Below are positions 1-29,477 of a DNA stretch of 64,000 nucleotides, in pieces. Origin of the DNA: Clostridiales bacterium (GTDB lineage Bacteria; Bacillota; Clostridia; Christensenellales; UBA1242); NCBI GenBank assembly GCA_015055665.1, contig SVHX01000001.1:67873-131872 (forward strand), given 5' to 3'. Numbering within the stretch: the stretch's first letter is position 1; the number at the start of each line of letters is the position of its first letter. The notes below the pieces were generated by a model. That model was not told where the DNA came from. It did no database searches and saw only the letters and a program-made list of their open reading frames with translations. Made by a program: the position numbers and the translations under genes.

Positions 1-464
1 CTGGTTCGTGTATCAAAGTGCTCTTGCTCAAGCATAATCTTATCCCAGAACTCTCTAACTGGCCTAGACAAATCATGCGAAAGTCTGCTATATACTGTCC
101 ACATGAAAGTCCTCTGATTCTCCATGATAGACATAGCGGTATGATAGTTGTAATTCTTGAAGAGTGCTATTTTGTATTCGATATACGCACGAGCATATGG
201 ATTGGCATCTATAACAGTAATATCTTTAGCACCATATAATATTGCATTAAGTGCTTGATCTCCACTAGAGCCAACAGTTGCTACACGCTTATTTTTAAGA
301 TTGATATAACTAGGCTTCATTATTTCATCTAGAAATTCGTTAGTCATTGGATAACACCTATCTGCAATAGATGTATCATAATCAGTTCGCTTGGAATCAG
401 GGGCAAAAATCATATTAGAAAGATAATCGTATTCTTTATCATCATAATATTGTATATCGTCCAT
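1..464 (-). CDS. BtaA/DUF3419-like SAM-binding Rossmann-fold protein, array copy 9 (N-terminal ~154 aa only; the rest lies beyond the left window edge)
   Basis: Absent from the ORF track because it is open at the edge. My minus-strand translation from ATG 464-462 (SD GAGGAGG 6 nt upstream) reads MDDIQYYDDKEYDYLS..DRCYPMTNEFL..KRVATVGSSGDQALNAILYGAKDITVIDANPYARAYIEYKIALFKN..SHDLSRPVREFWDKIMLEQ. These are the same N-terminal motifs as in the eight complete copies. Confidence 0.8.
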   Translation of the reverse strand, partial: MDDIQYYDDKEYDYLSNMIFAPDSKRTDYDTSIADRCYPMTNEFLDEIMKPSYINLKNKRVATVGSSGDQALNAILYGAKDITVIDANPYARAYIEYKIALFKNYNYHTAMSIMENQRTFMWTVYSRLSHDLSRPVREFWDKIMLEQEHFDTRT

Positions 465-499
465 AAATTACCTCCTCATAATTACTAATTGCAAGAATT

Positions 500-1432
500 T
501 TACATACAAGAGCTAGTCCAACTAAATCTTGGCTCAGTTTCGCCCATAGGCTTGTTAACGAGTATACATCTAGTTCCTTTGGGATCAACTGGGACTTCGA
601 TTGTTTCAAGATCGGCAAATATACTCTTGTATGATTCCCACGGATATACAAGTTCATAATGCACTTGAATCTTTCCTCCGGGATTAAGATTGTTATCGTA
701 CAGCCTATCAACTGTATAGCCAAATGTTTCTATATCAACATAATCAATTATATTAGATAGCAATATCATATCAAACTTACCTTGTAATTCGTCTGGGAAT
801 TCATAAACATCAGCGGTTATAAAGTTAAGTTCGAAATCCCCACTTTTAAGGATATTCCTTAGTTTGTTGTAGTTTGCTTCATTTTGATATATACTTATCT
901 TCTTAGTAGAGTGGCTATGTAGCATATTACGTTCTATGTCCATATCGTCAAAGCCATTATCACACCAAGAAACATGCTCACCGGCTTGTTCAAGAATAAT
1001 TTTGTCCCAGAATTGTCGTGTGGGCTCAGATAAGTCATGAGAAATCTTACGATACACACTCCAATGGAACAACCCTCCGATATCTAGGAGTAATTCGGTA
1101 GTGGTATCATAATCAAAATTCTTAATCATGGCAATCTTATATTCAATAAATGCTCTAGAATAAGCATTGGCATCAATAATAGTGACGTCTTTTGCACCAT
1201 TTTGAAGTGCAACTAATGCCTGATCTCCACTAGATCCAACCGTTGCAACTCTTTTGCCAGTTAGATCAAAATAGTACTTATTAATAAAACTATCCAAATG
1301 CTCATTTGTAGTTGGATAACAACGCTCTGTTGTGTTGTTATCATAATCATTTCTCTTAGCACTAGCATAATATAATACTTTGTCTGTAAGATAATCGTAT
1401 TCAATATCTTCGTAATAATTAGGTTGATTCAT
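500..1432 (-). CDS. BtaA/DUF3419-like SAM-binding Rossmann-fold protein, array copy 8
   Basis: 310-aa ORF with SD GGAGA upstream. Motifs: YYEDIEYDYLT, CYPTTNE, KRVATVGSSGDQALVAL, DVTIIDANAYSRAFIEYKIAMIKN, ISHDLSEPTRQFWDKIILEQ, FDMILLSNIIDYV, LNPGGKIQ. Confidence 0.85.
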   Translation of the reverse strand: MNQPNYYEDIEYDYLTDKVLYYASAKRNDYDNNTTERCYPTTNEHLDSFINKYYFDLTGKRVATVGSSGDQALVALQNGAKDVTIIDANAYSRAFIEYKIAMIKNFDYDTTTELLLDIGGLFHWSVYRKISHDLSEPTRQFWDKIILEQAGEHVSWCDNGFDDMDIERNMLHSHSTKKISIYQNEANYNKLRNILKSGDFELNFITADVYEFPDELQGKFDMILLSNIIDYVDIETFGYTVDRLYDNNLNPGGKIQVHYELVYPWESYKSIFADLETIEVPVDPKGTRCILVNKPMGETEPRFSWTSSCM

Positions 1433-1458
1433 ATTTTTCTCCGTTGTGATTTGTTAAA

Positions 1459-2382
1459 TTAATATCCTTTTCCTTCATCTTCTTTTGAAATATAATAGGA
1501 ATAAGTATCTTTGAATTCTTTAACTTCATGTTTTAGTTTGGTTGGATTATGATATTCCCATAAAAAATTATAGTGTGCTTTTTTATTGTAATTATACGCG
1601 TATTGTATTTTGCCTTCAGGATTCAGATGCTTACGCAAATCTTTAATAAGAGTTATGAACGAATAGTAATTTACGTAATGTATTATATTAGAAAGAAATA
1701 TATAATCATAAGTTCCATCAAGACATTTATCAAAGTCAAACACATCAGCGTTAACAAAGTGAAGTTTATAATCATCATTTTTAAGTATTTGTTGTAATTT
1801 TTCATATGCGTAGTTATATCTATAAAAACTTGATGTTTTTAATGCGTACTCTTGAATTAATTTACGGTAGATATTAAATGAGCTTGCAGAATCAGAAATA
1901 GATCTATTATCCTGTTCAAGAATAATTTTATCCCAGAAATTTCTAATTGTCAGAGGCAAATCATGAGAAATGCTTCTATAAATTCTCCAATCAAACATTT
2001 TTGAGCCCAAAATGTTCCAAAATTGGTTTTTATTAAAATTCTTCATAAGAGCAATCTTGTATTCAACAAAAGCTCTTGTAAACGGATTTCCATCTATTAA
2101 AGTAATATCTCTAGAACCATAATATAATGCATTAAGTGCTTGATCTCCACTAGAGCCAACTGTAGCAACTCTTTTACCCGCCATATTCCTTGGCATATGC
2201 CCATATAGTAGTTCGTTGCTTGTAGGATAACATTTGTCTGCTGTAGTGTTTGAATAATCGTTTAAAGAGTATAGATCATTGTCATTAAGAATAATATAAC
2301 CAAGATAATCGTAATCACTATCGTCATATAAGTCTATATCAGGATTGTCGAAGTAATTTGGATTCAGCCTCTTATTAATCAT
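1459..2382 (-). CDS. BtaA/DUF3419-like SAM-binding Rossmann-fold protein, array copy 7
   Basis: 307-aa ORF with SD AGGAGA. Motifs: NPDIDLYDDSDYDYLG, CYPTSNE, KRVATVGSSGDQALNALYYG, ITLIDGNPFTRAFVEYKIALMKN, ISHDLPLTIRNFWDKIILEQ, YDYIFLSNIIHYV, LNPEGKIQ. Confidence 0.85.
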   Translation of the reverse strand: MINKRLNPNYFDNPDIDLYDDSDYDYLGYIILNDNDLYSLNDYSNTTADKCYPTSNELLYGHMPRNMAGKRVATVGSSGDQALNALYYGSRDITLIDGNPFTRAFVEYKIALMKNFNKNQFWNILGSKMFDWRIYRSISHDLPLTIRNFWDKIILEQDNRSISDSASSFNIYRKLIQEYALKTSSFYRYNYAYEKLQQILKNDDYKLHFVNADVFDFDKCLDGTYDYIFLSNIIHYVNYYSFITLIKDLRKHLNPEGKIQYAYNYNKKAHYNFLWEYHNPTKLKHEVKEFKDTYSYYISKEDEGKGY

Positions 2383-2421
2383 TATTTTTCTCCTGTTTTT
2401 TTAGGTGGCGGAATTTCTTAG

Positions 2422-3387
2422 TTACCTGCCCATTTCTTTTTCTTTAGAATTTTGTTTTTTTGTTAGAAAATACGCGTAATGTCCATTACAGTATTTTATT
2501 TTTGCTTTTTGTTTGATTCTAGGGGATGTAAGAAGACAAAATCTTTCATGAGGTCCAAATCTATAAGTATAATTATATTGGATTATGCCGTTGGGATTAA
2601 GTTTCAAATCTCTTAGCCTCTGTAAAAATTGTGTGTACTTATGATAATCTGTATATTCCATTATATTGGATAATAATATTGCATCATATCTCCCCTTCAA
2701 TGCAGAGTTAAAATCGTAAACATCTGCATTTTTAAACTCAAGATTAAAATCACCCTCTCGCAGTATTCGCTGAAGTTTTTTGTATGCTAATGGGTATTTG
2801 TAGAAGGAAGAAGACTTAAACGGGTAATCGTTACATAACCTATAATATATATTTACCGGTTGCAAATCGTCAGGATTATATGAGCCATTATGTCCTTCAG
2901 ATTGTTCGAGCATTATTTTGTCCCAAAAATATCTTGCCTCTTCACTTAGATCATGAGATATTCTTGCATATGTTTCCCAACTAAATAACTTGGTTGTAAA
3001 CTGCTTATCAAGTAATTTCCAGAATTCTCTATATCCTAGATTTTTAATTAACGCCATCTTGTATTCCACGAAAGCTCTAGTATATGGATTGCCGTCAATC
3101 AGTGTTACATCCTTAGATCCATAAAATAATGCGTTAAGTGCTTGATCTCCACTTGAACCTACTGTTGCAACACGCTTGTTCTTTAGGTGCATACGACTCA
3201 TATAACTGTCTAAATGCTCGTTACTAGTAGCATAACACCCTTCACCTGTGGGATTATTATATTGAGTTGTTTGAAAACCATAATCTTTATCTATGATTTT
3301 AGATGTTAGATAATCGTAATCGCTAAAATCATACAAATCTATGTTAGGGTTGTCAAAATGTGATCGATTAAGTTTATTATTTAACAT
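2422..3387 (-). CDS. BtaA/DUF3419-like SAM-binding Rossmann-fold protein, array copy 6
   Basis: I trimmed the ORF-track start (3405) to ATG 3387 (MLNNKLNRSHFDNPNIDLYDFSDYDYLT), which has GGAGG 6 nt upstream. Motifs: CYATSNE, KRVATVGSSGDQALNALFYG, VTLIDGNPYTRAFVEYKMALIKN, ISHDLSEEARYFWDKIMLEQ, YDAILLSNIMEY, LNPNGIIQ. Confidence 0.85.
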   Translation of the reverse strand: MLNNKLNRSHFDNPNIDLYDFSDYDYLTSKIIDKDYGFQTTQYNNPTGEGCYATSNEHLDSYMSRMHLKNKRVATVGSSGDQALNALFYGSKDVTLIDGNPYTRAFVEYKMALIKNLGYREFWKLLDKQFTTKLFSWETYARISHDLSEEARYFWDKIMLEQSEGHNGSYNPDDLQPVNIYYRLCNDYPFKSSSFYKYPLAYKKLQRILREGDFNLEFKNADVYDFNSALKGRYDAILLSNIMEYTDYHKYTQFLQRLRDLKLNPNGIIQYNYTYRFGPHERFCLLTSPRIKQKAKIKYCNGHYAYFLTKKQNSKEKEMGR

Positions 3388-4327
3388 TATCTTCCTCCAA
3401 ATCATCTACTTGAGCTTCTGGTTTGTTAAGTATCCATGCGTACATTTTATGGTTGTGTGTGTGAGGAATTTTTTCTATTAGTTTGCGATATTTTTTCTTA
3501 TTAAAATAATCTAACAATTTATCCCCAGATTTCATGTGAAAATCGTAATGATATTGCATTTTGCCACCTGTATTTAGATTGTTTTTATATAATCTTTTTA
3601 GCGTGCTAACAAAATTACTATCATCACAATAATCAAATATATTGCTTAGCATGATTACATCATATTTTCCATCCAGCAATTTAGGAAAGTCATTATAATC
3701 ACAAGTGATGTAATTGATATTATAATCACCATTAATTAGTTTGTCTTGAAGCATCTTATACAAATGATTATTGAGATAAAACACGCTATTATGAAATCGA
3801 GCAGTTTGGGCAATTAGAGTGGCATGAATCTGAAAGTCAGTTGCTACTCTAATATCAAAATCTGTACCTTGTTCTAATATTAACTTATCCCAAAATATTT
3901 GTACGGGTTTAGATAAATCATGTGAAATTCTTCTGTATGTTTTATAATTAAACATAAATGTTTCGTCATAATCAAAATAAGAACTAAATTCATCTAGATC
4001 CATATTCTTAATCATGGCAATTTTATATTCAATATAAGCTCTAGCATATGGGTTGCCGTCAATTAAGGTTATATCTTTTGCGCCATAATATATAGCATTA
4101 AGTAATTGATCTCCACTGGAGCCTACCGTTGCAACCTTTTTGTCTCTCATATCAAGTGAATTCATATAGCTAATAAGATCTTCATTACTCATGTCGTAGA
4201 TATGTCGTTCGGGCATATTATATTTGTAATTTTCAAAAGTTAATAGCGGATATTTTTCGTCAATGGTATTAAGTGCAAAAGCCGAAAGATAATCGTAGTC
4301 TGTATCATAATAATCTACTTTTGACAT
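3377..4327 (-). CDS. BtaA/DUF3419-like SAM-binding Rossmann-fold protein, array copy 5
   Basis: 316-aa ORF with SD AAGGAGG. Motifs: YYDTDYDYLS, KKVATVGSSGDQLLNAIYYG, ITLIDGNPYARAYIEYKIAMIKN, ISHDLSKPVQIFWDKLILEQ, YDVIMLSNIFDY, LNTGGKMQ. Its 3' end overlaps the start of copy 6 by 11 nt. Confidence 0.85.
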   Translation of the reverse strand: MSKVDYYDTDYDYLSAFALNTIDEKYPLLTFENYKYNMPERHIYDMSNEDLISYMNSLDMRDKKVATVGSSGDQLLNAIYYGAKDITLIDGNPYARAYIEYKIAMIKNMDLDEFSSYFDYDETFMFNYKTYRRISHDLSKPVQIFWDKLILEQGTDFDIRVATDFQIHATLIAQTARFHNSVFYLNNHLYKMLQDKLINGDYNINYITCDYNDFPKLLDGKYDVIMLSNIFDYCDDSNFVSTLKRLYKNNLNTGGKMQYHYDFHMKSGDKLLDYFNKKKYRKLIEKIPHTHNHKMYAWILNKPEAQVDDLEEDNVK

Positions 4328-4346
4328 AATAACCTCCTTTTAATTC

Positions 4347-5288
4347 TTACAATTGCATATTATCAATTTTATCAATATCTTTTGTTTTGTTTATAAACCA
4401 TACTCTAGTTGGAGGGAAGGTCCCCTCAACTGTATAGTAGTTATAATCGAAGTTGGTGTAAAAGTTTCGCCTTTTCCATATTCCGTTTCTTTTCATATCA
4501 TAATATACCTGAATCATCCCATCTTCACTTAGATTATCGTTGTATAGTTTAATAATGGTCTTTTCAAACTTCTCACTATCAAGACTATCGTATATGTAAT
4601 CATAAATATTAGAAAGTAGTATAGAGTCGTATTTTCCATCTAATTTCATAGGGAATTCACTTAATTCTGCTGTAATAAAAGATAGATTATAATCACCGCT
4701 TTTAAGAACATTCTGCATCTTTTTATAATTCTCAAATTTGTAAAATTCACTACTGCAGAATGGATAATCTTGTATCAAGATTCTATACATATCTTCAGAA
4801 GATAGTGTGGAGTTAGGACTATTGTCTTGTTCTATAATTAATTTATCCCAAAATCGTTGACTGTCCTTTGACAAATCATGAGATATTTGTCTGTATGTAA
4901 TCCAACTAAACAGATCTTTCTTGCTAGTCAAGATTTTATGGAATTTATTACAATCAAAGTTCTTAATCATGGCAATTTTATACTCTGTAAAAGCTCGTGA
5001 ATAAGGATTAGCATCAATTAGAGTTACATCCTTTGATCCATAATATATTGCATTGAGCGCTTGATCTCCGCTAGAGCCTACCGTTGCAACTCTCTTATCT
5101 TTTAGAGGCATAAAATACATATAGTTTTCCAAATTCTCGTTACTAGTTATATAACACGCGGAAACTGTGCAATTTATACAATTTTCTTCATCAATGTCTT
5201 TAGTTAAAACCTTTTCGGTAAGATAATCATATTCACTGTCTTCATATAAATCTATATCTGGATTATTAATATAATCTGTCTTTAACAT
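4347..5288 (-). CDS. BtaA/DUF3419-like SAM-binding Rossmann-fold protein, array copy 4
   Basis: 313-aa ORF with SD GAGGAGG. Motifs: NPDIDLYEDSEYDYLT, CYITSNE, KRVATVGSSGDQALNAIYYG, VTLIDANPYSRAFTEYKIAMIKN, ISHDLSKDSQRFWDKLIIEQ, YDSILLSNIYDY. Confidence 0.85.
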   Translation of the reverse strand: MLKTDYINNPDIDLYEDSEYDYLTEKVLTKDIDEENCINCTVSACYITSNENLENYMYFMPLKDKRVATVGSSGDQALNAIYYGSKDVTLIDANPYSRAFTEYKIAMIKNFDCNKFHKILTSKKDLFSWITYRQISHDLSKDSQRFWDKLIIEQDNSPNSTLSSEDMYRILIQDYPFCSSEFYKFENYKKMQNVLKSGDYNLSFITAELSEFPMKLDGKYDSILLSNIYDYIYDSLDSEKFEKTIIKLYNDNLSEDGMIQVYYDMKRNGIWKRRNFYTNFDYNYYTVEGTFPPTRVWFINKTKDIDKIDNMQL

Positions 5289-5299
5289 AACATCCTCCT

Positions 5300-6247
5300 C
5301 TACATTGTTGATTCTGGAAAAACTTGCTCCATTACATTAGGTTTGTTTATAACCCAAACATGACTGCCCCAGCGCACATCAATTGTTTCAAAATCTAATT
5401 CAGATAATCTTGCCTTTAGACCTCCACCACCTTTACTAGAACAGAGCTCGTAGTGTGCTTGAATTTTGCCTCCAGGATTTAGTTTGTTATCATATAAATC
5501 TCGTACGATCGTAGCAAATACGTCGCCATCTTCGTAATCATAAATATTGCTTAAGATAATAGTATCAAATGTACCGTCTAGATCATGAACGAAATTACGG
5601 AGGTCAGAACAAATATAATTAACATTGAAATTATTATCACGCAACAACTTTTGCAAATAGTTATATGATGACTTAAATTTATAAAAATCACTATTTGAGT
5701 AGAAAGTACCTGGATGACACAATGTTACATATGTATTATAAGCAGTTGTATCCATAATGTCCCGAGATTGTTCTAATATAATTTTATCCCAGAACTGTCG
5801 AACAGGTTTACTCAAATCATGAGAGATCTTCCTATAGGTATAATAATTAAATATATCCATGCTAATATTGTCTCCTGACACCGACTTAAATTCTTCATAT
5901 GACAAATTCTTAAGTAGTGCCAGCTTGTATTCAACAAAAGCTCGACTGTATGGATTACCGTCTATAAGTGTAATGTCTTCTGACCCATAGTATATAGCAT
6001 TTAGTAATTGATCTCCACTCGATCCCACAGTAGCTACGCGTTTATCCATCATGTTAAGTCTTTTCATATATGCACTTAAGAGCTCGTTGCTAGTTGTATA
6101 ACATTTTAACTCTGCTGTGTTGGGTTGTTGAGCTTCTGCTAAATACAAAGGATGTGTATTAGTATCTTTATCGTCATAATTATATAAGTTAAAAATATAA
6201 TCTGTTAGATAATCATATTCTGTATCATAGAAATCAAATTTGTCCAT
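5300..6247 (-). CDS. BtaA/DUF3419-like SAM-binding Rossmann-fold protein, array copy 3
   Basis: 315-aa ORF with SD GGGGAG. Motifs: FYDTEYDYLT, CYTTSNE, KRVATVGSSGDQLLNAIYYG, ITLIDGNPYSRAFVEYKLALLKN, ISHDLSKPVRQFWDKIILEQ, FDTIILSNIYDY, LNPGGKIQ. Confidence 0.85.
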   Translation of the reverse strand: MDKFDFYDTEYDYLTDYIFNLYNYDDKDTNTHPLYLAEAQQPNTAELKCYTTSNELLSAYMKRLNMMDKRVATVGSSGDQLLNAIYYGSEDITLIDGNPYSRAFVEYKLALLKNLSYEEFKSVSGDNISMDIFNYYTYRKISHDLSKPVRQFWDKIILEQSRDIMDTTAYNTYVTLCHPGTFYSNSDFYKFKSSYNYLQKLLRDNNFNVNYICSDLRNFVHDLDGTFDTIILSNIYDYEDGDVFATIVRDLYDNKLNPGGKIQAHYELCSSKGGGGLKARLSELDFETIDVRWGSHVWVINKPNVMEQVFPESTM

Positions 6248-6258
6248 TATTAACTCCC

Positions 6259-7221
6259 CTATTCCATACTAGCATCACATTGCTCTATAGCATTTTCTCT
6301 TGGTTTGTGTAGTATGTATGCTCCCATTGGCACTGCTGGTTTATCTAATTTGTATCCTTTGAAATATTCAATTAATTCTTCTGGAAAGTATCTATAACTA
6401 AACGAATAATCTACTTGCATCACTCCACCTGGATTTAATCTACTATTGTATAGATCTTTGGCGTGTCTACAAAAGTTATAATGATCAACATAATCATAAA
6501 TATTAGATAGCATTATTACATCAAACTTGCCATCTAGCACCTCATCAAAATTGCTAATATCTGATCTAATAAAATTTAAGGTAAAATACCCTTTCCTTAA
6601 TATATCTTGTAACTTATTATAGTTTTCTTGACTTGAAATATAATTAACACCTACTTCACAATCAAACTGTATTAATTCCAAACTAATAGCTGCCGCCGTT
6701 ACTCGTTTCGCGTAATATTCTTCACAAAAATCGGTTGAATCGTTATATCCTCCTTGGTATTCTAGATATATTCTGTCCCAGAATTCTTGAGCTGGCTTAG
6801 ACAGGTCGTGAGATATTTTCTTATATATATTAATATCGAATAGCTTAGTGCGAGGATCGTCTATTAAATCAATATATGTAGCATAATCAAGATTCTTGAT
6901 CATAGCCATTTTGTACTCAGCAAATGCTCTTGAATAATAATTGGCATCAATAAGCGTAACATCTTTCGCACCGAGCAATAGAGAATCTAACATTTGATCA
7001 CCGCTAGATCCCACAGTTGCAACTCTCTTACCTTCGAAATATTCTCGTTTCATAAATGCCTTGAGGTCTTCGTTACTAGTTAAATAGCATGTATCGCGTA
7101 TATCGTTGAAACATATATAAGAATCAGTGTCAAGAAATCTACCTGTAAGATAATCATAATAACTAAGGTCATAGCAATTGTCTGGTATAAATAGGTCTTC
7201 TAATTCACTATAATTAATCAT
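6259..7221 (-). CDS. BtaA/DUF3419-like SAM-binding Rossmann-fold protein, array copy 2
   Basis: 320-aa ORF. Its ATG overlaps the stop of copy 1 (ATGA at 7218-7221), and GGAGG lies 4 nt upstream. Motifs: YDLSYYDYLT, CYLTSNE, KRVATVGSSGDQMLDSLLLG, VTLIDANYYSRAFAEYKMAMIKN, ISHDLSKPAQEFWDRIYLEY, FDVIMLSNIYDYV, LNPGGVMQ. Confidence 0.85.
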   Translation of the reverse strand: MINYSELEDLFIPDNCYDLSYYDYLTGRFLDTDSYICFNDIRDTCYLTSNEDLKAFMKREYFEGKRVATVGSSGDQMLDSLLLGAKDVTLIDANYYSRAFAEYKMAMIKNLDYATYIDLIDDPRTKLFDINIYKKISHDLSKPAQEFWDRIYLEYQGGYNDSTDFCEEYYAKRVTAAAISLELIQFDCEVGVNYISSQENYNKLQDILRKGYFTLNFIRSDISNFDEVLDGKFDVIMLSNIYDYVDHYNFCRHAKDLYNSRLNPGGVMQVDYSFSYRYFPEELIEYFKGYKLDKPAVPMGAYILHKPRENAIEQCDASME

Positions 7222-8147
7222 AACGCCTCCATACTCTCGTCTATATAATAATCTTTATTATTTTCTCTTGGTTTGCGTAGCATAAATCCGCCCCAGTCGC
7301 AGTAATAATTGAAGTCACGGAAATACTCTTTGAGAGAACTTGGCATTATAGCACTAAAGACATAGTCAATCTGCATAACTCCATTAGGATTAAGCTTGTG
7401 GTCATATAGGTCATAAAGAAGTGGTATGTATTGATTTGCAGGTACATAATCGTATATGTTAGATAGTAATATTACATCAAATTTGCCTTTTAGCTTATTA
7501 TCAAATTCAAAGACATCAGCAGTAATATAATCTACTTGATAATCTCCTTTGTGGAGAACATCCTGTAGATGGTTGTATGCCTCTTCGGTATTTGTAAAAG
7601 CTGATCCACCAATCATGGCTGAGTCTTGAATTAATTCCGAATAAAAAGACGTTGGGTTGGCGGTAAAGCTATCTTTGTCGTATTCCAGAAAGAGTCTATC
7701 CCAGAACTCTTGTGCAGGCCTTGATAAGTCTTGAGATATTCGACGATATAGACTAAGGCTAAATAATTTAAGTTGAGGTGCTTGTAAGATAGAAATAAAC
7801 TCATCATATGACAAATTTTTTATCATAGCCATCTTATATTCGGTAAACGCTCTAGTGAACTTATTGGCATCAATAAGCGTTACATCCTTTGCTCCTAAAT
7901 ACAGAGCGTTTAATAGTTGATCCCCACTAGACCCTACTGTCGCTACTCTTTTGCCTTCAAAGTCCTTTTTGTGCATGAACGCACAAAGATACTCGTTGCT
8001 AGTAATGTAACAACGATCGCGAATATCCTTAATTCTTTTGTTATAAAGATGCATATTTAATATTTGATACGTTAGATTATCTTCTTCTTCAAAGTTGTAC
8101 CAATCGTCTAGAATAATCTCAGATCTCGATTCTTCGTAATTATTCAT
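7218..8147 (-). CDS. BtaA/DUF3419-like SAM-binding Rossmann-fold protein, array copy 1 (promoter-proximal)
   Basis: 309-aa ORF with a GGGGG SD. Motifs: CYITSNE, KRVATVGSSGDQLLNALYLG, VTLIDANKFTRAFTEYKMAMIKN, ISQDLSRPAQEFWDRLFLEY, FDVILLSNIYDYV, LNPNGVMQ. The N-terminal YDYL motif is degenerate here (NFEEEDNLT). Confidence 0.85.
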   Translation of the reverse strand: MNNYEESRSEIILDDWYNFEEEDNLTYQILNMHLYNKRIKDIRDRCYITSNEYLCAFMHKKDFEGKRVATVGSSGDQLLNALYLGAKDVTLIDANKFTRAFTEYKMAMIKNLSYDEFISILQAPQLKLFSLSLYRRISQDLSRPAQEFWDRLFLEYDKDSFTANPTSFYSELIQDSAMIGGSAFTNTEEAYNHLQDVLHKGDYQVDYITADVFEFDNKLKGKFDVILLSNIYDYVPANQYIPLLYDLYDHKLNPNGVMQIDYVFSAIMPSSLKEYFRDFNYYCDWGGFMLRKPRENNKDYYIDESMEAL

Positions 8148-8182
8148 TATATACCCCCATAATCCCCATTATAGTTATATAT

Positions 8183-8211
8183 ATTATATCATATTATATA
8201 GTCAATTTCAA
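8183..8211 (-). promoter_or_regulatory. sigma-A-type promoter of the paralog array
   Basis: Minus strand reads TTGAAA (8211-8206), a 17-nt spacer, then TGaTATAAT (extended -10; hexamer 8188-8183). It lies about 35 nt upstream of the copy 1 ATG. Confidence 0.5.
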
Positions 8212-8239
8212 TAGGGTTATAAAAATTTGTATATAGCAC

Positions 8240-8267
8240 AAAAAAAGTAAGGATTGAAGCCTTACTT
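8240..8267 (-). terminator. rho-independent terminator after the deacetylase gene
   Basis: Minus strand reads AAGTAAGG-CTTCAAT-CCTTACTT followed by TTTTTTT. The hairpin overlaps the TAA stop at 8262-8264. Confidence 0.6.
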
Positions 8268-8963
8268 TAAACAATTACTAACAGTTGTAGCTGTTAAATT
8301 ATTAACTTTGTAATATTCAAGAATTAGCGGAAGTGCTTTAAGAGTATTCTCAGTAGGATGTGCAAGAACTAGATCTCCGCCTGATATATTGCTTGTAGCT
8401 CGCTTAAATATAATATTGGCATCTTTATCTCGCCAATCGATTGTGTCCTTGCTCCACATGATTGTCGAGTAACCAAGTTCGGCACAGGTATCTAGAGTTG
8501 ATTTGTTAAAGCTTCCACTTGGAGGAGCAAATAAGTTCATTTCGTAATCATGTACTACTTTGACAAGATTATGAGTTGTGTTAATCTCCTCCAAATTTTG
8601 CTCATAGCTTAGATGCTCGTGTTCTTTGTGAAAGTATCCGTGATTGCCAATTTCATGACCCCGTGATATGATTTTATCTAGCATTTCTGGCTCTTTTTCT
8701 ACCCATTGTCCACCTACAAAGAAGGTCGTCTTGACACCAAATTGATCTAATACATCAAGTATGCCATCAATATATTCTGTTCCCCAATAAACATTAAACA
8801 TAATACTTACATTAGTGCTATCTCGGTTGCCATTATATATAACATTTTCGTTATTATAGTTAAACACATACTGGTAGTTACTAGCACCTATGAAAACACA
8901 CATAAATATTAGCATACCAATAATTACAACGTTACTAAGAACTCTATAGGCTTTTAATTTCAT
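8262..8963 (-). CDS. polysaccharide deacetylase (NodB domain; YlxY/PdaB-like) with an N-terminal membrane anchor
   Basis: Contains FFVGGQW..HEIGNHGYFH..LFAPPSG..WSKDTIDW, typical NodB motifs, plus an N-terminal TM segment. It sits immediately downstream of pnp, as ylxY does in B. subtilis. Confidence 0.8.
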   Translation of the reverse strand: MKLKAYRVLSNVVIIGMLIFMCVFIGASNYQYVFNYNNENVIYNGNRDSTNVSIMFNVYWGTEYIDGILDVLDQFGVKTTFFVGGQWVEKEPEMLDKIISRGHEIGNHGYFHKEHEHLSYEQNLEEINTTHNLVKVVHDYEMNLFAPPSGSFNKSTLDTCAELGYSTIMWSKDTIDWRDKDANIIFKRATSNISGGDLVLAHPTENTLKALPLILEYYKVNNLTATTVSNCLK

Positions 8964-9024
8964 ATGTCACCTTTGCGTGTTATTACATAATAATATACTA
9001 AATCAGCTTTGTAGTTATGACTCG

Positions 9025-9061
9025 AAAAAAAGATTTAGTAGATATAATTTCTACTAAATCT
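9025..9061 (-). terminator. rho-independent terminator after pnp
   Basis: Perfect 12-bp stem AGATTTAGTAGA/TCTACTAAATCT with a 7-nt loop, followed by T7 on the minus strand. Confidence 0.75.
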
Positions 9062-9076
9062 ATAATTGTTATTTGA

Positions 9077-11173
9077 TTATTTCTCTTTTTTGTAAGTTCC
9101 AACAAGCTTTAGGTCAACTTTACCATCATTAATCTTGATTACCTCAACTTCAACGGTATCGCCAATATTAACAACGTCCTCAACCTTCTCTACTCTCTTG
9201 CTAGAAAGTTTAGAGATATGAATCATACCTTCTTTGTTAAATCCAATCTCAACAAAAGCACCAAAGTTAAGGATTCTTACAACTTTACCAGTATAGATTT
9301 TACCGATCTCAACATCTTCAGTAATAGATAGAATAATCTCTTTGGCCTTCTGTGATTTCTCAGCGTCAACGCCACAAATCATAACAAGTCCATCATCTTC
9401 GATGTCGATCTTAACGCCTGTTTCGTCAATAATCTTGTTAATCATTTTGCCACCAGAACCGATAACATCTTTGATCTTATCTGGATTAATTGTGAAAGAT
9501 ATAATCTTAGGAGCAAATGGGCTAAGTTCCTTTCTTGGCTCAGAAAGAACTTGATTCATCTTGTTCAATATAAATAGTCTTCCATCTCTAGCTCTAGAAA
9601 GTGCTTCACGCAATATCTTCTCGTCAATACCCTTGATCTTAATATCCATTTGGATAGCTGTGATACCCTTAGTCGTACCAGCAACTTTGAAGTCCATATC
9701 TCCCAAGAAGTCTTCAAGTCCTTGGATATCAGTTAGAATTGCTACCTTACCACTCTTCTCATCTTTGATAAGTCCCATTGCACAACCAGCAACTGGAGCT
9801 TTGATAGGAACGCCGGCGTCCATAAGAGCAAGTGTGCTACCACAAACAGATGCTTGAGATGTAGAACCGTTACTACTTAGAACTTCACTTACTGTACGAA
9901 TTGCATATGGGAATTCTTCTTCGCTAGGAAGAACAGGGATAAGAGATCTCTCTGCAAGTGCACCGTGTCCAATTTCTCTACGACCAGCAGATCTAAGAGG
10001 TCTAGCCTCTCCTGTAGAATATGCTGGGAAGTTGTAGTGATGCATATAACGCTTCTCTTCCTCAGTGTCTAGTCCATCAAGGATTTGAGTATCTCTTAGG
10101 CTACCAAGGGTACAAGTTGTCATAACCTGAGTTTCGCCTCTTGTGAATACGCCACTGCCATGAACTCTAGGAAGTATTCCTGCTTCACACCAGATAGGTC
10201 TAATCTCGTCAAGCTTACGGCCATCAGGTCTAACGCCTTTCTCGATAATCTTAGCACGCATTATTTCCTTCTTAACTTTGTAAAGGACGTCAAGAATCTC
10301 ACGAGTATTCTCAGGATACTTTTCGGCAAAATGCTCTATAATCTCTGCATTGGCTAACTCTTCAGCACGCTCTCTCTCGTGTCTGTCGAAGTTCTCCATT
10401 ACTTTTTCCATGATAGGATAGCCAAATTCTCTTACATCTTTCTCAAGAGTTTCATCAATTACATAATAAGGTAGATTTTCTGCCTTCTTTACGCCAAGTT
10501 CTTTGGCAATTTTCTCTTGGAAAGCAACTTGCTTCTTGATCTCTTCATGAGCGAATAAGATACCTTTAAGCATCTCTTCTTCAGATACCTCATTAGCACC
10601 AGCTTCAACCATCAAGATAGCATCTTTAGTTCCAGCAACTTTAAGATCCATTAATGACTTAGCTTGTTGATCACAAGTTGGGTTAACAATGTACTCGCCA
10701 TCAATATAAGCTACTTGACAACTTCCGGTAGGGCCAGCAAATGGAATATCACTAATAGTTAGTGCAATAGAACTAGCAAACATAGCTAGAGGCTCTGGAG
10801 CAACATCATAATCTACGCTTAATGGAGTAGCTACGACTGTTACGTCATTGAAGAATCCCTTAGGGAACAATGGTCTAAGTGGACGGTCGATAAGTCTAGA
10901 TGTAAGAATTGCCTGATCGGTTGGTCTACCCTCGCGCTTCTTAAATCCCCCAGGAATCTTACCTACTGCGTATAGTTTCTCTTCGTAGTCAACACTTAGT
11001 GGGAAGAAGTCTTGACCTGGTCTTGGCTCTTTGTTCATACAAGTATTAACCATAACCATAGTATCGCCACATTTAACAATACAATGACCATTAGTTTGGA
11101 ACGCGTATTTGCCTACTTCGACTGTAACTTCTTTGCCACCGATTTCTGTCTTAAATTCTTTATAATCGTTCAT
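9077..11173 (-). CDS. pnp: polyribonucleotide nucleotidyltransferase (PNPase)
   Basis: 698 aa with two RNase PH domains, a KH domain and an S1 domain (GKVVRILNFGAFVEI). The similarity pattern to PNPase runs the full length. Confidence 0.97.
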   Translation of the reverse strand: MNDYKEFKTEIGGKEVTVEVGKYAFQTNGHCIVKCGDTMVMVNTCMNKEPRPGQDFFPLSVDYEEKLYAVGKIPGGFKKREGRPTDQAILTSRLIDRPLRPLFPKGFFNDVTVVATPLSVDYDVAPEPLAMFASSIALTISDIPFAGPTGSCQVAYIDGEYIVNPTCDQQAKSLMDLKVAGTKDAILMVEAGANEVSEEEMLKGILFAHEEIKKQVAFQEKIAKELGVKKAENLPYYVIDETLEKDVREFGYPIMEKVMENFDRHERERAEELANAEIIEHFAEKYPENTREILDVLYKVKKEIMRAKIIEKGVRPDGRKLDEIRPIWCEAGILPRVHGSGVFTRGETQVMTTCTLGSLRDTQILDGLDTEEEKRYMHHYNFPAYSTGEARPLRSAGRREIGHGALAERSLIPVLPSEEEFPYAIRTVSEVLSSNGSTSQASVCGSTLALMDAGVPIKAPVAGCAMGLIKDEKSGKVAILTDIQGLEDFLGDMDFKVAGTTKGITAIQMDIKIKGIDEKILREALSRARDGRLFILNKMNQVLSEPRKELSPFAPKIISFTINPDKIKDVIGSGGKMINKIIDETGVKIDIEDDGLVMICGVDAEKSQKAKEIILSITEDVEIGKIYTGKVVRILNFGAFVEIGFNKEGMIHISKLSSKRVEKVEDVVNIGDTVEVEVIKINDGKVDLKLVGTYKKEK

Positions 11174-11190
11174 AATTTCTCCTTTATTTC

Positions 11191-11220
11191 AAAAAAAGCG
11201 AAAGTTTGAAATCTTTCGCT
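11191..11220 (-). terminator. rpsO terminator / pnp leader hairpin
   Basis: Minus strand reads AGCGAAAG-8 nt-CTTTCGCT followed by TTTTTTT, between rpsO and pnp. Confidence 0.6.
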
Positions 11221-11234
11221 TGGATAGATAATAA

Positions 11235-11498
11235 TTATCTAATATTTAACTTGGACTTCAATACTCTATAACCTTCAAGATTAGTTCTTTCCATGTACTT
11301 AAGTAGACTCTTTCTACGGTTAACTAATTTTAGAAGTCCTCTACGAGAATGGTTATCATTAGGGTTCTTTTTTAGGTGGTCAGTAAGCTCGTTAATTCTT
11401 GTAGAAAGAATAGCGATCTGAACTTCGCAAGAACCTGTATCCCCTTCTTTAGTAGCATAAGCTTTGATAACTTCTTGCTTTTTCTCTTTAGAAATCAT
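11235..11498 (-). CDS. rpsO: 30S ribosomal protein S15
   Basis: I trimmed the ORF start to [14 protein letters not shown] (ATG 11498, SD AGGAGAA 7 nt upstream). Contains the [29 protein letters not shown] signature. Confidence 0.95.
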
Positions 11499-11590
11499 AA
11501 TTTTGTTCTCCTTTTTTTTTATAATTTTATTCACCTGAAACCAAGTCTTCCATTGGAGAAAATGGACAAACGTAGTCTAGGTACAATGTA

Positions 11591-11619
11591 AGTATATCAA
11601 ATATATTTCCAAATGTAAA
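11591..11619 (-). promoter_or_regulatory. sigma-A-type promoter of rpsO, followed by a ~90-nt structured leader
   Basis: TTTACA-17 nt-TGaTATACT on the minus strand. The leader contains the hairpin TCCATT-TTCTCC-AATGGA and could be an S15 autoregulatory leader; I did not verify this. Confidence 0.45.
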
Positions 11620-11681
11620 CACTTTTATTAAAAATTTTTCATCAAAATCTCATATATTTTTGTCATTAATATTTGTGTAAT

Positions 11682-12104
11682 TTACATCTCGGGACTGTTT
11701 GTGTTTAGATATTCTTCAAGGTCTTGTTTATAAGGCTCATTTTTGAATTTGTCAGACATCATTTTCCAGTAAGCACGAAGTAAGATTACATCTCTTTCGG
11801 AGAATTCGTCGTCAATAAAGACCCTACAACAGACAAAGTCATTTAATTCGATTATATTAATCTTATGATTATCTACATATTCACTAAGATTTAATCCAGT
11901 TTGATGAGCTATTTTTTTGGCAATAGCATCCATTATTGGATTATTAATCACTTTAGTGTCAAAACATCTTATATAGCACGAAGACTCATTATTTTCGCTG
12001 CAATCATTAAGATTTTCTTCCAAATCATCATCAATAACATATAATCCGTTTTCATTAAGAAAATCAAGTACTTCTTGCATGCTTAGTTTAGTAAAATATT
12101 TCAT
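11682..12104 (-). CDS. hypothetical acidic, Cys-containing protein (140 aa)
   Basis: Clean ORF with SD GGGGA and a textbook promoter upstream. I recognise no family. Confidence 0.6.
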   Translation of the reverse strand: MKYFTKLSMQEVLDFLNENGLYVIDDDLEENLNDCSENNESSCYIRCFDTKVINNPIMDAIAKKIAHQTGLNLSEYVDNHKINIIELNDFVCCRVFIDDEFSERDVILLRAYWKMMSDKFKNEPYKQDLEEYLNTNSPEM

Positions 12105-12136
12105 ATTTAATATATCCCCTACTTTTGTTTGGGAAT

Positions 12137-12165
12137 ATTATAGCATGGTAGTATACGAGTGTCAA
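12137..12165 (-). promoter_or_regulatory. consensus sigma-A promoter of the 140-aa orphan gene
   Basis: TTGACA (12165-12160), a 17-nt spacer, then TGcTATAAT (hexamer 12142-12137) on the minus strand. Confidence 0.6.
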
Positions 12166-12190
12166 TAGCAGATTTCATAATGTTGATTAA

Positions 12191-13600
12191 TTAACTAAAC
12201 AAAGCCTTCTTCTTGTCTATCATCTCATCAATTCTAGTAATATATTCGCTAATATTCTTGAGATTGGCAAATCTCTCTATCTTATTGTTGAGGCTATAAT
12301 ACCTTTTTGAGATAGCATTAGCACCACAAGCGATTATAGATGCAAATTCTTCCATGCTATCTATATTAAATATGGAAACTTTATCTCTAAAATATCCGAT
12401 ATTTTCAAGATTTCCTAGCATGTTCTTCTGCTTGTACATATAATATGGCTTGTAGCCAGCATTAATTAGCGTAGGATACGAGTATTCGATCATCTTGGAT
12501 ACGACATCTTCGGTCGAAGTTTCTCCGCCTTCAGTTTTTAGTTCGCTTCCACGCTTAATGCTTAGTGTATGAACTGTAATATTGTCTGGATAACACTCTA
12601 TTGCCTTATTAAGGCTCTTTTTAAACGTTAGAAGACTCTCTCCGCCTAGCCCTGCAATTAAATCCATATTGATGCTAAAATTATAATTAAGTGCTAGTTT
12701 GTAGGCATCTAAGATATCTTGAGATGTGTGATTTCTGCCAATTGTTTTGAGCGTTTTGTTACAAAAGGTTTGTGGATTGATACTAATTCTAGTTACATTA
12801 TGTTTTTTAAGTACGTCAAGTTTATCAGCTGTAATTGTGTCTGGTCTACCACACTCAACCGTAAATTCTGCGACGTTGTAATCTATTGCCGATAATAACC
12901 TATCCATTTGGTTAGCATCCAAAATTGTAGGAGTTCCACCGCCAATATAAATAGATTTTACAATATAATTTTTGGTTGAGATTAATTCTTTTGTTGCTGA
13001 TATTTCCTTAATTAAAGCCTCTAAATAAGGCTCGACCTGATCTCTGCACTTATCTATTGGAGCAGAGATAAACGAGCAATAATAGCACTTTGATGGACAA
13101 AATGGAATATTGATATATAAATCTACTAAATTATCATTTTTTATAATATTCTTTTGATTTTTTATTATTTCTTTAACAAGTTGTGCCTTGGCTGGGGTTA
13201 CTTTGAAGGTATCTATAAGCATATTCATAGCTTTCATGTAGTCACCACTACACTCTTTGATTAACTCATAATATAATTTTGTTGGCCTAATACCTGTCAA
13301 ACTACCCCATGGCAATATTTTATCTGGTTTAATACTTTGTAAAATGTCAAAAACAGCCAGTTTTGCGTATCTTTTTAGATATCTATCCGGAAAATTTCTA
13401 TCAACAATTTTATCTTCCCTATTTACTTTGCAATCATTATAATTACAAGTTGCATGAGTAGAAATTGAGTCACCTTTGACATCCTGATCAATACAAATTT
13501 CATAATCTAAATCGTTTATTTCTTCCTCGCAAAAGAATAATTTGACAACCAAATTAAGTTCGTCTATTAACTTTTCGTTACTTGAAATAATGTTTATCAT
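12191..13600 (-). CDS. radical SAM protein, HemZ/HemN-like (oxygen-independent coproporphyrinogen dehydrogenase family)
   Basis: Contains the CPSKCYYCSF CxxxCxxC motif and GGGTPT. I trimmed the start to MINIISSNEKL (ATG 13600), 1 nt after the rel stop. Confidence 0.7.
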   Translation of the reverse strand: MINIISSNEKLIDELNLVVKLFFCEEEINDLDYEICIDQDVKGDSISTHATCNYNDCKVNREDKIVDRNFPDRYLKRYAKLAVFDILQSIKPDKILPWGSLTGIRPTKLYYELIKECSGDYMKAMNMLIDTFKVTPAKAQLVKEIIKNQKNIIKNDNLVDLYINIPFCPSKCYYCSFISAPIDKCRDQVEPYLEALIKEISATKELISTKNYIVKSIYIGGGTPTILDANQMDRLLSAIDYNVAEFTVECGRPDTITADKLDVLKKHNVTRISINPQTFCNKTLKTIGRNHTSQDILDAYKLALNYNFSINMDLIAGLGGESLLTFKKSLNKAIECYPDNITVHTLSIKRGSELKTEGGETSTEDVVSKMIEYSYPTLINAGYKPYYMYKQKNMLGNLENIGYFRDKVSIFNIDSMEEFASIIACGANAISKRYYSLNNKIERFANLKNISEYITRIDEMIDKKKALFS

Positions 13601-13601
13601 A

Positions 13602-15785
13602 TTAGTTCGTCCTATAAACTTCGAGTGCAATATTGAGTTGTTTAATTTTAACAATCAATGCGTCCAGATCAGCTTTGTCTTTGATGTTAAGATGGATGGT
13701 AACTACAACCTTGTTGTCTTCAATCTTCTTGGCAAGTAGACCAACCATATTAATCTTCTCATCATTAAGCTTCTTGGTAATGACAGATACTAGTCCTGGG
13801 GTATCTGTTGCGATAATAGTGATAGAGCCAACAAAATTCTTATTGGATGTTGTGTTCCAAGAACACTCGATTAGTCTTTCGAATTCGTAGTTCTTGAGAG
13901 CTTCGCAATCTCTTCTGTGTATTGTTACACCATTGCCCCTAGAAATGTATCCTATAATATCATCTCCTGGCAATGGACTACAACATTTTGCAAGCTTAGT
14001 AAGTAGATTCGAGAACCCTTTGACTTCGATATCACCTTCATTTTTGATATTATTAAGTTGATATTCTTTGTTAGGTGCAAATAATTCTTTATTATCGGCT
14101 TTATATAGGGCATTTAGCTTATTAAGTACTTGACCTGCTGTAATAGATCCAAAGCCAAGGGAGGCGTACATATCATCAATTCCTTGAAAGCTGTACTTCT
14201 CGTATAACTCTTCAAGATACTCGTTAACAAGGAGTTTAGATAAATTAAGTGCTTTCGTTTTTGCGTAATTCTCAAGAATTGCCTTGCCTTTCTTGATGTT
14301 TTCTTCCTTCATAGCTTTCTTAAAGAAAGTATTAATCTTTGACTTGGCGGAACTGGTTTTTGCTAATTTTAACCAATCTCTCGAAGGCCCATTGGAATTA
14401 GGATTGGTAATGATTTCTATAATATCGCCATTATTCATTGGTGTTGATAACGGAACCATCCTATCGTTAATTTTTGCACCAACGCAAGTATTACCAATAT
14501 TACTATGTATTGCATAAGCAAAATCAATTGGTGTAGCACCTTCTGGGAATTCTATAATCTTGCCTTGTGGAGATTGTACGAATATCTTACCGCTATAAAC
14601 GTCAGTATTCATAATCTCAAGTAGTTCGTCATTACTCTTCTCTTTATGAAGATCCATGATGGAACGGATGTAATTAATCTTAACACCACTTTCGTCAACT
14701 TTCTTCTTCTCTTTGTATGCCCAGTGAGCAGCAAATCCATATTCTGCATAAGTGTGCATATCGAAAGTTCTTATCTGGACTTCAACCGGGTCGCCGTTAT
14801 CTAGAACGATTGCTGTATGAAGAGATTGGTATCCATTTTCTTTAGGGTTAGCAATGTAGTCTTTGAAATTTCCAAGAGGCTTAAAGGTTGTAAAGACTTT
14901 GCCAAGAGCCGCATAACACTCTTCTACCCTATCAACTAAAATTCTAACTGCAAGAATATCCATTATCTGATTTAATTTGTTTTCATTGAAAGATACGTTG
15001 TCTGCAACATCATGCAAATAATTGTTACGTCCATAAATATCAGTAATAGTACTAACTGCCATATTTTTGCTTTGAAGTTTCTTAGCAATACTGAAGAGTT
15101 GCTTTTGTCTACCGTATACAACAGCATTAGGACATATCTGCACTAGCTCAGTTTTTAGTCTAGAGATTACTTCCTGAATATTATTATTTCTTTCTTCCAT
15201 AAATGTATTAAGTGCCTCTGATAGTTCCTTATACATTGCAGGTTTGTAATATTTGAAAGTAGCATTCCCAAAGTTGTTTTTTATGGTATTAAGTCCTAAC
15301 ATCTGGCATAACGGAAAGTATACATCTGACACAGATTTCATATAGTTTTCGACAAGTTCTTCAGACATATTGTCAATAAAGTCGAGTTTAGACTCTTCAA
15401 TGCAGAGTTTAATAATGATAACACGAATATCCTTTGCAAGAGCAATAAACATATTTTTTATATTGTCTAACTGTTCTTGATGGGTTGTCAAATTAAGGTT
15501 GTCAATTTTTGCAATACGATTAAATATCCCCTTAATCTCTTCATCAAAAATATCTAAGTCAACTATGCTTGGCTCTATTCTAAAGATTGGATACATTAGC
15601 CCAACGACGATTGATTTGTAGTCGAGCCTATTATCAAGAATAGCCTCTGCTATTTTAACTGCAAATCTTTGAGATTCAAGATCGTTGCCTTTGTATTTAT
15701 CCTTCATTAGATTATAAGTATTCCTAACATATTCATAATCTTTTTGTGCCAAAACATTGCCAATCTTTTCAAAAAATTTTTCCAT
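13602..15785 (-). CDS. relA: RelA/SpoT-homolog (p)ppGpp synthetase with a degenerate hydrolase domain
   Basis: Synthetase motifs are present: GRQKQLFSIAKK, ILAVRILV, KDYIANPKENGYQSLHT, EVQIRTFDMHTYAEYGFAAHWAYKE. TGS and ACT-like C-terminal regions are present. The N-terminal ~190 aa lack the HD, ED and RLHN hydrolase residues. Confidence 0.9.
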   Translation of the reverse strand: MEKFFEKIGNVLAQKDYEYVRNTYNLMKDKYKGNDLESQRFAVKIAEAILDNRLDYKSIVVGLMYPIFRIEPSIVDLDIFDEEIKGIFNRIAKIDNLNLTTHQEQLDNIKNMFIALAKDIRVIIIKLCIEESKLDFIDNMSEELVENYMKSVSDVYFPLCQMLGLNTIKNNFGNATFKYYKPAMYKELSEALNTFMEERNNNIQEVISRLKTELVQICPNAVVYGRQKQLFSIAKKLQSKNMAVSTITDIYGRNNYLHDVADNVSFNENKLNQIMDILAVRILVDRVEECYAALGKVFTTFKPLGNFKDYIANPKENGYQSLHTAIVLDNGDPVEVQIRTFDMHTYAEYGFAAHWAYKEKKKVDESGVKINYIRSIMDLHKEKSNDELLEIMNTDVYSGKIFVQSPQGKIIEFPEGATPIDFAYAIHSNIGNTCVGAKINDRMVPLSTPMNNGDIIEIITNPNSNGPSRDWLKLAKTSSAKSKINTFFKKAMKEENIKKGKAILENYAKTKALNLSKLLVNEYLEELYEKYSFQGIDDMYASLGFGSITAGQVLNKLNALYKADNKELFAPNKEYQLNNIKNEGDIEVKGFSNLLTKLAKCCSPLPGDDIIGYISRGNGVTIHRRDCEALKNYEFERLIECSWNTTSNKNFVGSITIIATDTPGLVSVITKKLNDEKINMVGLLAKKIEDNKVVVTIHLNIKDKADLDALIVKIKQLNIALEVYRTN

Positions 15786-15797
15786 TATTATCTCCTA

Positions 15798-29370: not shown

Positions 29371-29477
29371 ATTTACCCACTCCTCAACAAATAAATAAAA
29401 AATTATCTATTATCTTTACCACACCAAAACGATATTCGGAGGGTGAGAAGTGGAACTTCTTCTTTAACTACGATACA

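Follow-up and report, generated by a model that had tools for sequence, protein, structure and literature searches.

A stretch of 64,000 nt from a Clostridiales bacterium, an uncultured gut Firmicute of low GC content (contig SVHX01000001.1 of assembly GCA_015055665.1, positions 67,873 to 131,872), called the window throughout, carries at its left end an array of exactly nine tandem genes located between ylxY and ftsK. They encode diverged proteins of about 310 residues that belong formally to the DUF3419 family. The explanation that we favor, to which we assign a probability of about one half, is that the nine products are independent, co-transcribed transferases dependent on S-adenosyl-L-methionine (SAM), with a single type of cofactor site, diverse acceptors and a lineage-specific tandem origin. 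The array is real, intact and unusually long; that an enzyme family should expand within one lineage is not surprising in itself.

Nine intact genes in tandem

Array copies are numbered c1 to c9 in the 5'-to-3' direction of the minus strand, and L-numbers designate public metagenome or genome contig loci. Eight complete minus-strand open reading frames (ORFs) of 307 to 321 aa lie head to tail in the window, and a ninth is cut at position 1 (Table 1). The intergenic gaps from c1 to c9 are -4, 11, 11, 19, -11, 39, 26 and 35 nt, and a Shine-Dalgarno sequence of the GGAG, GGAGG or GGGGG type stands before every start. The ATG of c6 at 3387 has an upstream GGAGG, while the longer ORF start at 3405 has none. 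A 177-nt DNA block repeats nine times along the array, with a period of 920 to 1002 nt and 63 to 75% identity, and the aligned proteins are 38 to 53% identical in pairwise comparisons. The initial annotation of the window had already recorded these ORFs and their lengths, the gaps of 11 to 39 nt, the ATGA and 11-nt overlaps, the separate Shine-Dalgarno sequences and a set of motifs common to all copies, and each of these observations was reproduced here; chance cannot account for them. Its count of at least nine copies, possibly extending further, was right as to the number but not as to the extension: longer contigs complete the ninth gene (304 aa) and contain no further copy, with a hairpin, ftsK/spoIIIE, a MiaB/RimO-like radical SAM gene, pgsA and recA beyond c9. 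On the other side, the upstream neighbor is a ylxY-like polysaccharide deacetylase gene.

The array reads as its own transcription unit because a terminator-like hairpin follows ylxY and a promoter-like site precedes c1. It looks like a separate unit with a vegetative-type promoter and not like a part of the pnp-ylxY unit, the promoter and terminators being consensus matches only. A terminator scan inside the array found no good terminator-like site, and an Rfam scan upstream of it found no riboswitch or leader. The single operon proposed at first is in keeping with the gene spacing and with these consensus scans, and the hairpin sets it apart from pnp-ylxY.

The exact c8 protein was present on 16 public metagenome contigs, always within the same array. 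Across six independent assemblies from different samples the array was 100% identical to the window, or 99.96 to 99.99% identical in two of them, which speaks clearly against the assembly artefact considered at the outset. On one of these contigs (L001, JGI 3300032167), a single G is absent at window position 383, within c9 and outside any homopolymer run, which changes GAACTGATTATG to GAACTATTATG (L001 ~11050-11103) and breaks the gene into frames of 44 and 265 aa; c9 is intact in the five other assemblies. Eleven residues are invariant across 104 homologs (E55, S76, S77, G78, D79, Q80, D96, K108, S233, N234 and G260) and three more are near-invariant (N54, T73 and G75), and all 14 are present in nine of the nine copies. 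No frameshift or lost invariant residue was found in the array copies of the window, and no copy has a transmembrane segment (top 19-residue Kyte-Doolittle mean of 1.26), both as first described. Eight copies have isoelectric points of 4.6 to 6.3, and c6 alone is basic (8.9).

One public gene call of c1 (L001 3286-4233) is 315 aa long, six residues beyond the table-11 ORF, whose stop lies at 7218-7220. The extra residues are those obtained if this TGA is translated as Trp and the frame continues to the following stop. Only three of the 55 large ORFs of the window terminate in TGA, and no ORF requires an in-frame TGA. The longer call looks like a gene caller picking a Mycoplasma-type code for a low-GC contig and not like genuine recoding.

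A predicted SAM-binding core with a helical lid

We modeled c3 with AlphaFold2 from an alignment of 104 homologs, and the model reached a mean predicted local distance difference test score of 89.2 and a predicted template modeling (TM) score of 0.90. Its strands (residues 70-73, 91-96, 208-213, 227-231, 256-267, 285-290 and 296-301) form a Rossmann-like sheet in which GSSGDQ (75-80) follows strand 1 and D96 ends strand 2, and 111 residues, all helical, are inserted between strands 91-96 and 208-213. The model has the fold of a class I SAM-dependent transferase. Foldseek comparison with the PDB retrieved only SAM-dependent enzymes at a probability of 1.00 (E values of 1e-5 to 4e-4 and TM-scores of 0.33 to 0.41), namely, an uncharacterized Leptospira protein, NNMT, Dam, TehB, AviRa, NodS and spermidine synthases. 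Model and search both reproduced the fold, and the model the insertion of about 110 aa between strands 2 and 3, that had been read from the motifs in the initial annotation, and the sequences suggest that the array proteins bind SAM.

Since the TM-scores do not exceed 0.41, only the enzyme core matches. The array proteins have the Rossmann-like SAM-binding core in common with NNMT, TehB, NodS, AviRa and the spermidine synthases, but at these TM-scores and at 10 to 15% identity, and none of these enzymes has the 111-residue helical lid between strands 2 and 3. Neither the PDB nor the viral models contained a specific functional relative, with TM-scores of at most 0.5 throughout. The best viral model was A0A5K0UB36 of Yasminevirus (632 aa, TMq of 0.50, 18% identity), followed by generic methyltransferases. 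This protein is the best structural match overall and, by its size, a candidate BTA1-like betaine-lipid synthase fusion.

Among the nine copies, conservation was highest at residues 46-120, 136-165 and 226-240, and it was lowest in the N-terminal linker (16-45), in parts of the lid (121-135 and 166-195) and in the C-terminal 45 residues (271-315). The conserved places are the strands that bind the cofactor, the EYK helix at the start of the lid and the ISHDLS..FWD helix.

The motif that follows strand 4 is L-S-N-I and not the (D/N/S)PP(Y/F) of DNA methyltransferases, and no nuclease gene that would point to restriction-modification lies nearby. The family profile matched apolipoprotein A-I weakly, at an E value of 0.02, over c3 residues ~123-178 (window ~5714-5881) and partly on tag sequence, and this is probably a chance match. 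It is centered on ...L..P....FWD.L..E...., and the lid helix may be amphipathic.

Membership in DUF3419

The eight complete copies all match PF11899 (DUF3419) with 41.8 to 55.1 bits, against a curated threshold of 28.2 (E values of 1e-11 to 1e-14), and distant homologs pass the threshold as well. The match covers only positions ~8-143 of the 385 in the profile, that is, its N-terminal third, and none of the copies matches the full profile. In the C-terminal halves we found only sub-threshold matches to Methyltransf_11/12/23/25; no methyltransferase model of Pfam or NCBIfam was passed, and the NCBIfam scan had no family near its cut-off. The DUF3419 assignment made in the initial annotation stands, with every complete copy above threshold, but the kinship to BtaA that came with it is remote. 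By profile comparison, the array proteins are formal DUF3419 members and not BtaA orthologs. The name "BtaA-like" designates the superfamily only and does not predict a betaine-lipid function.

A gut-restricted family that forms arrays repeatedly

When 1.84 billion cluster representatives were searched with a family profile, 4,304 proteins matched at an E value of ≤1e-3 and 1,046 at ≤1e-30, and the best 150 matches were nearly all of 290 to 350 residues. At 50% identity this short-form family falls into about 1,000 clusters, all seen here in Firmicute metagenomes of the gut and rumen, and the sole name that its members carry in any source is "DUF3419 family protein." A second search that started from the most distant member (P0107) added only metagenome proteins without names. 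Among GTDB contigs with one genome per species, 66 loci had a relative, none of them from the window's own species and all of them in metagenome-assembled gut or rumen genomes from hosts that include deer, sheep, goat, yak, rabbit, chicken and human. They are labeled as Clostridia (several as Candidatus Onthoplasma or Christensenellaceae), Bacilli, Erysipelotrichaceae and "Mycoplasma sp. CAG:877." The family was absent from the plasmids searched, and viral contigs gave one marginal match. The array belongs to a gut-restricted, short-form branch of a known family, and this branch is prone to tandem amplification. In the literature searched we found no description of short-form DUF3419 proteins or of their arrays, in agreement with the view first taken that no such array is known to be described; the work retrieved on DUF3419 or BtaA-like proteins dealt only with betaine lipids or, in one case, with a flanking gene of a cyanobacterial cluster.

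The genomic neighborhood of the family was uninformative. Clustering of the ORFs within 7 kb of family genes at 65 loci revealed no recurring gene family beyond shared ancestry, and the neighbors that do recur within sub-lineages are housekeeping genes (mutL-X-miaA in one Bacilli group; gyrA/B, der and uvrC elsewhere). No toxin, secretion, mobile-element or biosynthetic scaffold gene adjoins the array. Longer homologs have N-terminal extensions without a known domain or signal peptide. The only fused homolog found, P0108 (611 aa), is a natural fusion of two family domains; either paralogs of the family can work in pairs, or the fusion arose from two tandem genes by loss of the stop codon that separated them.

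We counted the copies per locus over 155 loci, repeat contigs of the same array included. A single copy was present at 124 loci, two copies at 13, three at seven, four at four, five at two and six at one; eight copies were found at three loci, which are a single array seen three times, and nine at one locus. Arrays of two to eight copies therefore recur elsewhere. Those in separate lineages include L075 with eight copies, L095 with at least five and L124 with at least four. The L075 array (8013-15970) comes from an unrelated organism and lies between a TrmA-like methyltransferase gene and efp; two of its copies are below Pfam detection yet are matched by the family profile built here. The ylxY/ftsK site is common only to the window array and L073, a close relative (amino acid identities of 98% for pnp, 96% for ylxY and 96% for ftsK) with six copies there. 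These are the counterparts of c1, c2, c5, c6, c8 and c9, and L073 is without c3, c4 and c7.

In a neighbor-joining tree of 87 family members (100 bootstrap replicates), the nine window copies and the six of L073 formed one clade in 94 replicates, which places the expansion within this lineage. Adjacent genes appeared as sisters (c1-c2 in 89 replicates, c6-c7 in 85 and c8-c9 in 84), and c3 and c5 were paired in 81. All of these values are lower bounds, because undefined distances spoiled some replicates. The pattern is the one expected of stepwise tandem duplication within the lineage, which by this tree appears to have produced the array. In L075, five of the eight copies clustered together (67 replicates), which suggests a separate expansion.

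Mosaic evolution faster than that of the flanks

Comparison with L073, a metagenome assembly that is possibly chimeric and the one contig from which the mosaic is known, showed segment identities that are uneven along the array, from 60 to 100%, with flanks at about 90%. Some segments must therefore have been exchanged recently, and others predate the split of the two organisms. Copy c1 and its counterpart (L073 copy 1) are 85% identical, and c8 and L073 copy 5 are 95.8% identical in amino acids. The counterparts of c5 and c6 are L073 copies 3 and 4, respectively, and a further contig, obtained in a different run (L074), confirmed the former. In c2, a sliding comparison with L073 copy 2 (L073 2432-3394) gave 98 to 100% nucleotide identity over the first ~120 codons and 40 to 78% from there on. 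The break falls at the end of the conserved cofactor-binding block, no window copy is a better donor downstream, and we read it as a sharp, putative recombination breakpoint inside c2. Values of the ratio of nonsynonymous (dN) to synonymous (dS) substitution rates between orthologs of 0.12 to 0.50 indicate purifying selection (Table 1). As far as can be judged from these sequences, both the copy number and the sequence of the array change much faster than the housekeeping genes around it.

A proposed family of independent transferases

In the reading that we favor, each soluble protein of ~310 residues would have a class I SAM-dependent, Rossmann-like core in which SAM is held by the VGSSGDQ loop after strand 1, by D96 at the end of strand 2 and by the Ser-Asn pair after strand 4. 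The 111-residue helical lid, with the invariant Lys of EYK and the ISHDLS..FWD helix, would cap the active site, and the acceptor site would be formed by the variable regions, that is, the linker at the N terminus, the latter half of the lid and the C-terminal sheet. Because the cofactor site is common to all copies and the variable regions differ, the chemistry would be the same and the acceptor specificities different. Each enzyme would act alone, taking an alkyl group from SAM and passing it to a nucleophilic acceptor; the group could be a methyl or, as in BtaA, a 3-amino-3-carboxypropyl group. The nine would be produced together from one promoter, and turnover of the array would continue, with genes gained, lost and recombined. 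Both co-transcription and catalysis are predicted here from sequence features. The copies are presumably independent, since 124 of the 155 loci are single-copy, partner genes do not recur, and relatives gain or lose individual copies.

Several points weigh against this reading. The short-form subfamily has no assayed or expression-profiled member, and sequence searches of the PDB, with a single protein and with the 104-sequence profile, returned no relative with a solved structure. Promoter-like matches in the AT-rich window barely exceed the shuffled expectation (72 versus 62), and further ones lie within the array at 3356-3328 and 774-747. Assigning the acceptor site to the variable segments follows an analogy with general methyltransferase architecture, and variable surfaces could reflect relaxed constraint rather than new specificities. 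By Rosetta-stone logic, the P0108 fusion could mean that paralogs pair up.

Alternative explanations

The array could instead be a conflict locus, in which diversified transferases neutralize harmful gut molecules (antimicrobials, plant toxins or competitor toxins) or modify cellular targets protectively. The chemistry would be that of the favored reading, and the difference lies in the reason for the array, here selection for divergent alleles and cassette exchange. The dN values of c2, c6 and c9 (0.19 to 0.21) are about 10 times those of the flanks (dN of about 0.02 with a dS of 0.49 to 0.62), the dS of c5 (0.04) is far under that of the flanks, and c2 breaks right after the conserved cofactor block. 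Copy number differs between close relatives (six versus nine), one sample has a frameshifted c9, and arrays arose independently in other lineages (L075, L095 and L124). In Firmicutes, the immunity genes esaG and tipC form strings of non-identical tandem paralogs that recombine through conserved blocks (PMC9484751). The array resembles these strings in its head-to-tail diverged paralogs with common conserved blocks, in its variation in copy number between close relatives and in its signs of intragenic recombination. The esaG and tipC products, however, are small non-enzymatic binding proteins encoded beside toxin or secretion genes, whereas the array encodes predicted enzymes of 310 residues with a strictly conserved cofactor site and no toxin gene nearby; secretion and mobile-element genes are missing from its vicinity, too. 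The Foldseek matches include the resistance-type methyltransferases AviRa, TehB and XrdM, but these are generic, with TM-scores of ≤0.41. The PADLOC defense models gave no significant match, viral contigs and plasmids are essentially free of the family, the genes around single-copy members are of the housekeeping type, and the mosaic comes from a single, possibly chimeric contig. Fast mosaic evolution like that of the immunity strings makes a role in resistance or conflict possible, and nothing else supports it; on balance we regard it as rather unlikely. A further elaboration, which we hold to be unlikely, is a hypervariable cassette locus with a fixed SAM-binding chassis and rapidly swapped acceptor modules, its diversity kept by conflict with antimicrobials, competitors or phages. 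Such a locus might be an enzymatic counterpart of the immunity-gene strings and use 3-amino-3-carboxypropyl transfer chemistry.

A second alternative is that the nine proteins are true BtaA-type lipid enzymes for different lipid acceptors. In betaine-lipid synthesis, BtaB is the partner N-methyltransferase. BtaA, the SAM:diacylglycerol 3-amino-3-carboxypropyl transferase of Rhodobacter sphaeroides, is the sole characterized DUF3419 member (PMC6642084; PMC6302742) and acts with BtaB (PMC6302742). It and the BtaA-like domain of algal BTA1 have DUF3419 and the core fold in common with the array proteins, every complete copy of which passes the DUF3419 threshold, and the alignment with the profile includes the G-rich loop, the acidic residue that ends strand 2 and the first part of the helical insert. 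The giant-virus protein that was the top viral structural match (632 residues, TMq of 0.50) may be compatible in size with a BTA1-like fusion, and the chance-level match of the lid helix (E = 0.02) is to amphipathic lipid-binding helices of apolipoprotein A-I. Against this, BtaA matches the DUF3419 profile with P = 2e-106 (PMC6642084), and the array copies match its N-terminal third only, some 90 orders of magnitude more weakly; at ~310 residues they also fall ~90 short of the 385 profile positions and are free of membrane segments. No btaB-like gene stands beside the array, which is flanked by ylxY and ftsK, or recurs across the 65 homolog loci. The hosts are gut Firmicutes and not phototrophs, rhizobia or algae, the anaerobic gut is not known as a phosphate-starved niche, and the genes occur in tandem arrays. 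We consider a BtaA-type function improbable.

It is still harder to see the nine proteins as an obligate hetero-oligomer or as a sequential, combinatorial pathway on one scaffold. Translational coupling and the gene overlaps suggest matched protein amounts, and the two-domain fusion P0108 exists, but a single copy without a partner is the rule among the genomes, six copies suffice for a close relative, one sample carries a frameshifted c9, and no scaffold-making gene lies in or beside the array. Of the two functional ideas in the initial annotation, the evidence thus favors diversified specificity over the combinatorial pathway. An assembly artefact is scarcely credible as an explanation of the array, and so is a collection of pseudogenes in decay: every source is a metagenome assembly and one sample has the c9 frameshift, but six independent assemblies agree at 99.96 to 100%, copies with only 38 to 53% of residues in common are too diverged to result from an assembler's mis-joining of reads, and nine intact copies keep every invariant residue at a dN/dS below 1.

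The family of independent transferases that we prefer has a bearing beyond this organism. DUF3419 has one characterized member, BtaA, and the analysis defines a large short-form branch beside it. With nine variants of the same enzyme chassis occurring naturally in one organism, the array is a convenient start for substrate finding, and the fast mosaic evolution hints at an ecological rather than a housekeeping function. If the reaction were 3-amino-3-carboxypropyl transfer, bacteria would be seen to use a rare SAM reaction in a new way; plain methylation of ordinary metabolites would make the array a routine family expansion.

TABLE 1 Array genes, putative signals and flanking genes. Positions refer to the window unless a contig is named; substitution rates are those of the comparison with L073.
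Feature	Position	Strand	Description	dN	dS	dN/dS
c1	7218-8147	-	309 aa, DUF3419-type; PF11899 49.2 bits; TGA stop overlaps ATG of c2 (ATGA)	0.085	0.62	0.14
c2	6259-7221	-	320 aa; PF11899 52.0 bits	0.193	0.68	0.28
c3	5300-6247	-	315 aa; PF11899 52.3 bits; copy used for the structure model			
c4	4347-5288	-	313 aa; PF11899 49.1 bits			
c5	3377-4327	-	316 aa; PF11899 55.1 bits; 97.6% nucleotide identity to L073 counterpart	0.021	0.04	0.50
c6	2422-3387	-	321 aa; PF11899 51.5 bits (scored on the 327-aa ORF from 3405); 11-nt overlap with c5	0.212	1.76	0.12
c7	1459-2382	-	307 aa; PF11899 41.8 bits, plus sub-threshold Methyltransf_12/25 matches in the C-terminal half			
c8	500-1432	-	310 aa; PF11899 53.3 bits	0.022	0.16	0.14
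c9 (partial)	1-464	-	N-terminal 154 residues in the window; full gene 304 aa (L002 6247-7161)	0.188	saturated	not computable
Promoter-like site, sigma-70 type	8183-8211	-	TTGAAA, 17 nt, TG-TATAAT; 11/12 consensus matches; ~35 nt before c1 ATG			
Terminator-like hairpin and T-run	8244-8268	-	Directly after ylxY stop; upstream edge of the array unit			
Terminator-like hairpin	L002 7228-7246		After c9, before ftsK			
ylxY (flank)				0.018	0.49	0.037
ftsK (flank)				0.023	0.62	0.037

Genomic context of the window

The gene content of the window is of the housekeeping type (rpsO, pnp, relA, recJ, secDF, yajC, tgt, queA, ruvABC, yebC, infC, recN, argR and proS), and SpoIVB is found beside it at 29708-30907. 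The organism is probably an endospore-forming type of Firmicute, since the window carries SpoIVB and ylxY. On the minus strand at 11682-12104, rpsO and a radical SAM gene flank a 140-aa acidic ORF that has no Pfam match. Every real-looking ORF of at least 130 aa in window positions 1-64000 is on the minus strand, and the GC skew stays negative over all of these positions; the window lies entirely on one replichore, with its genes co-oriented with replication. The sole Rfam match in the window was a ribosomal protein L20 leader (RF00558, 65.7 bits) on the minus strand at 29345-29470, upstream of infC.

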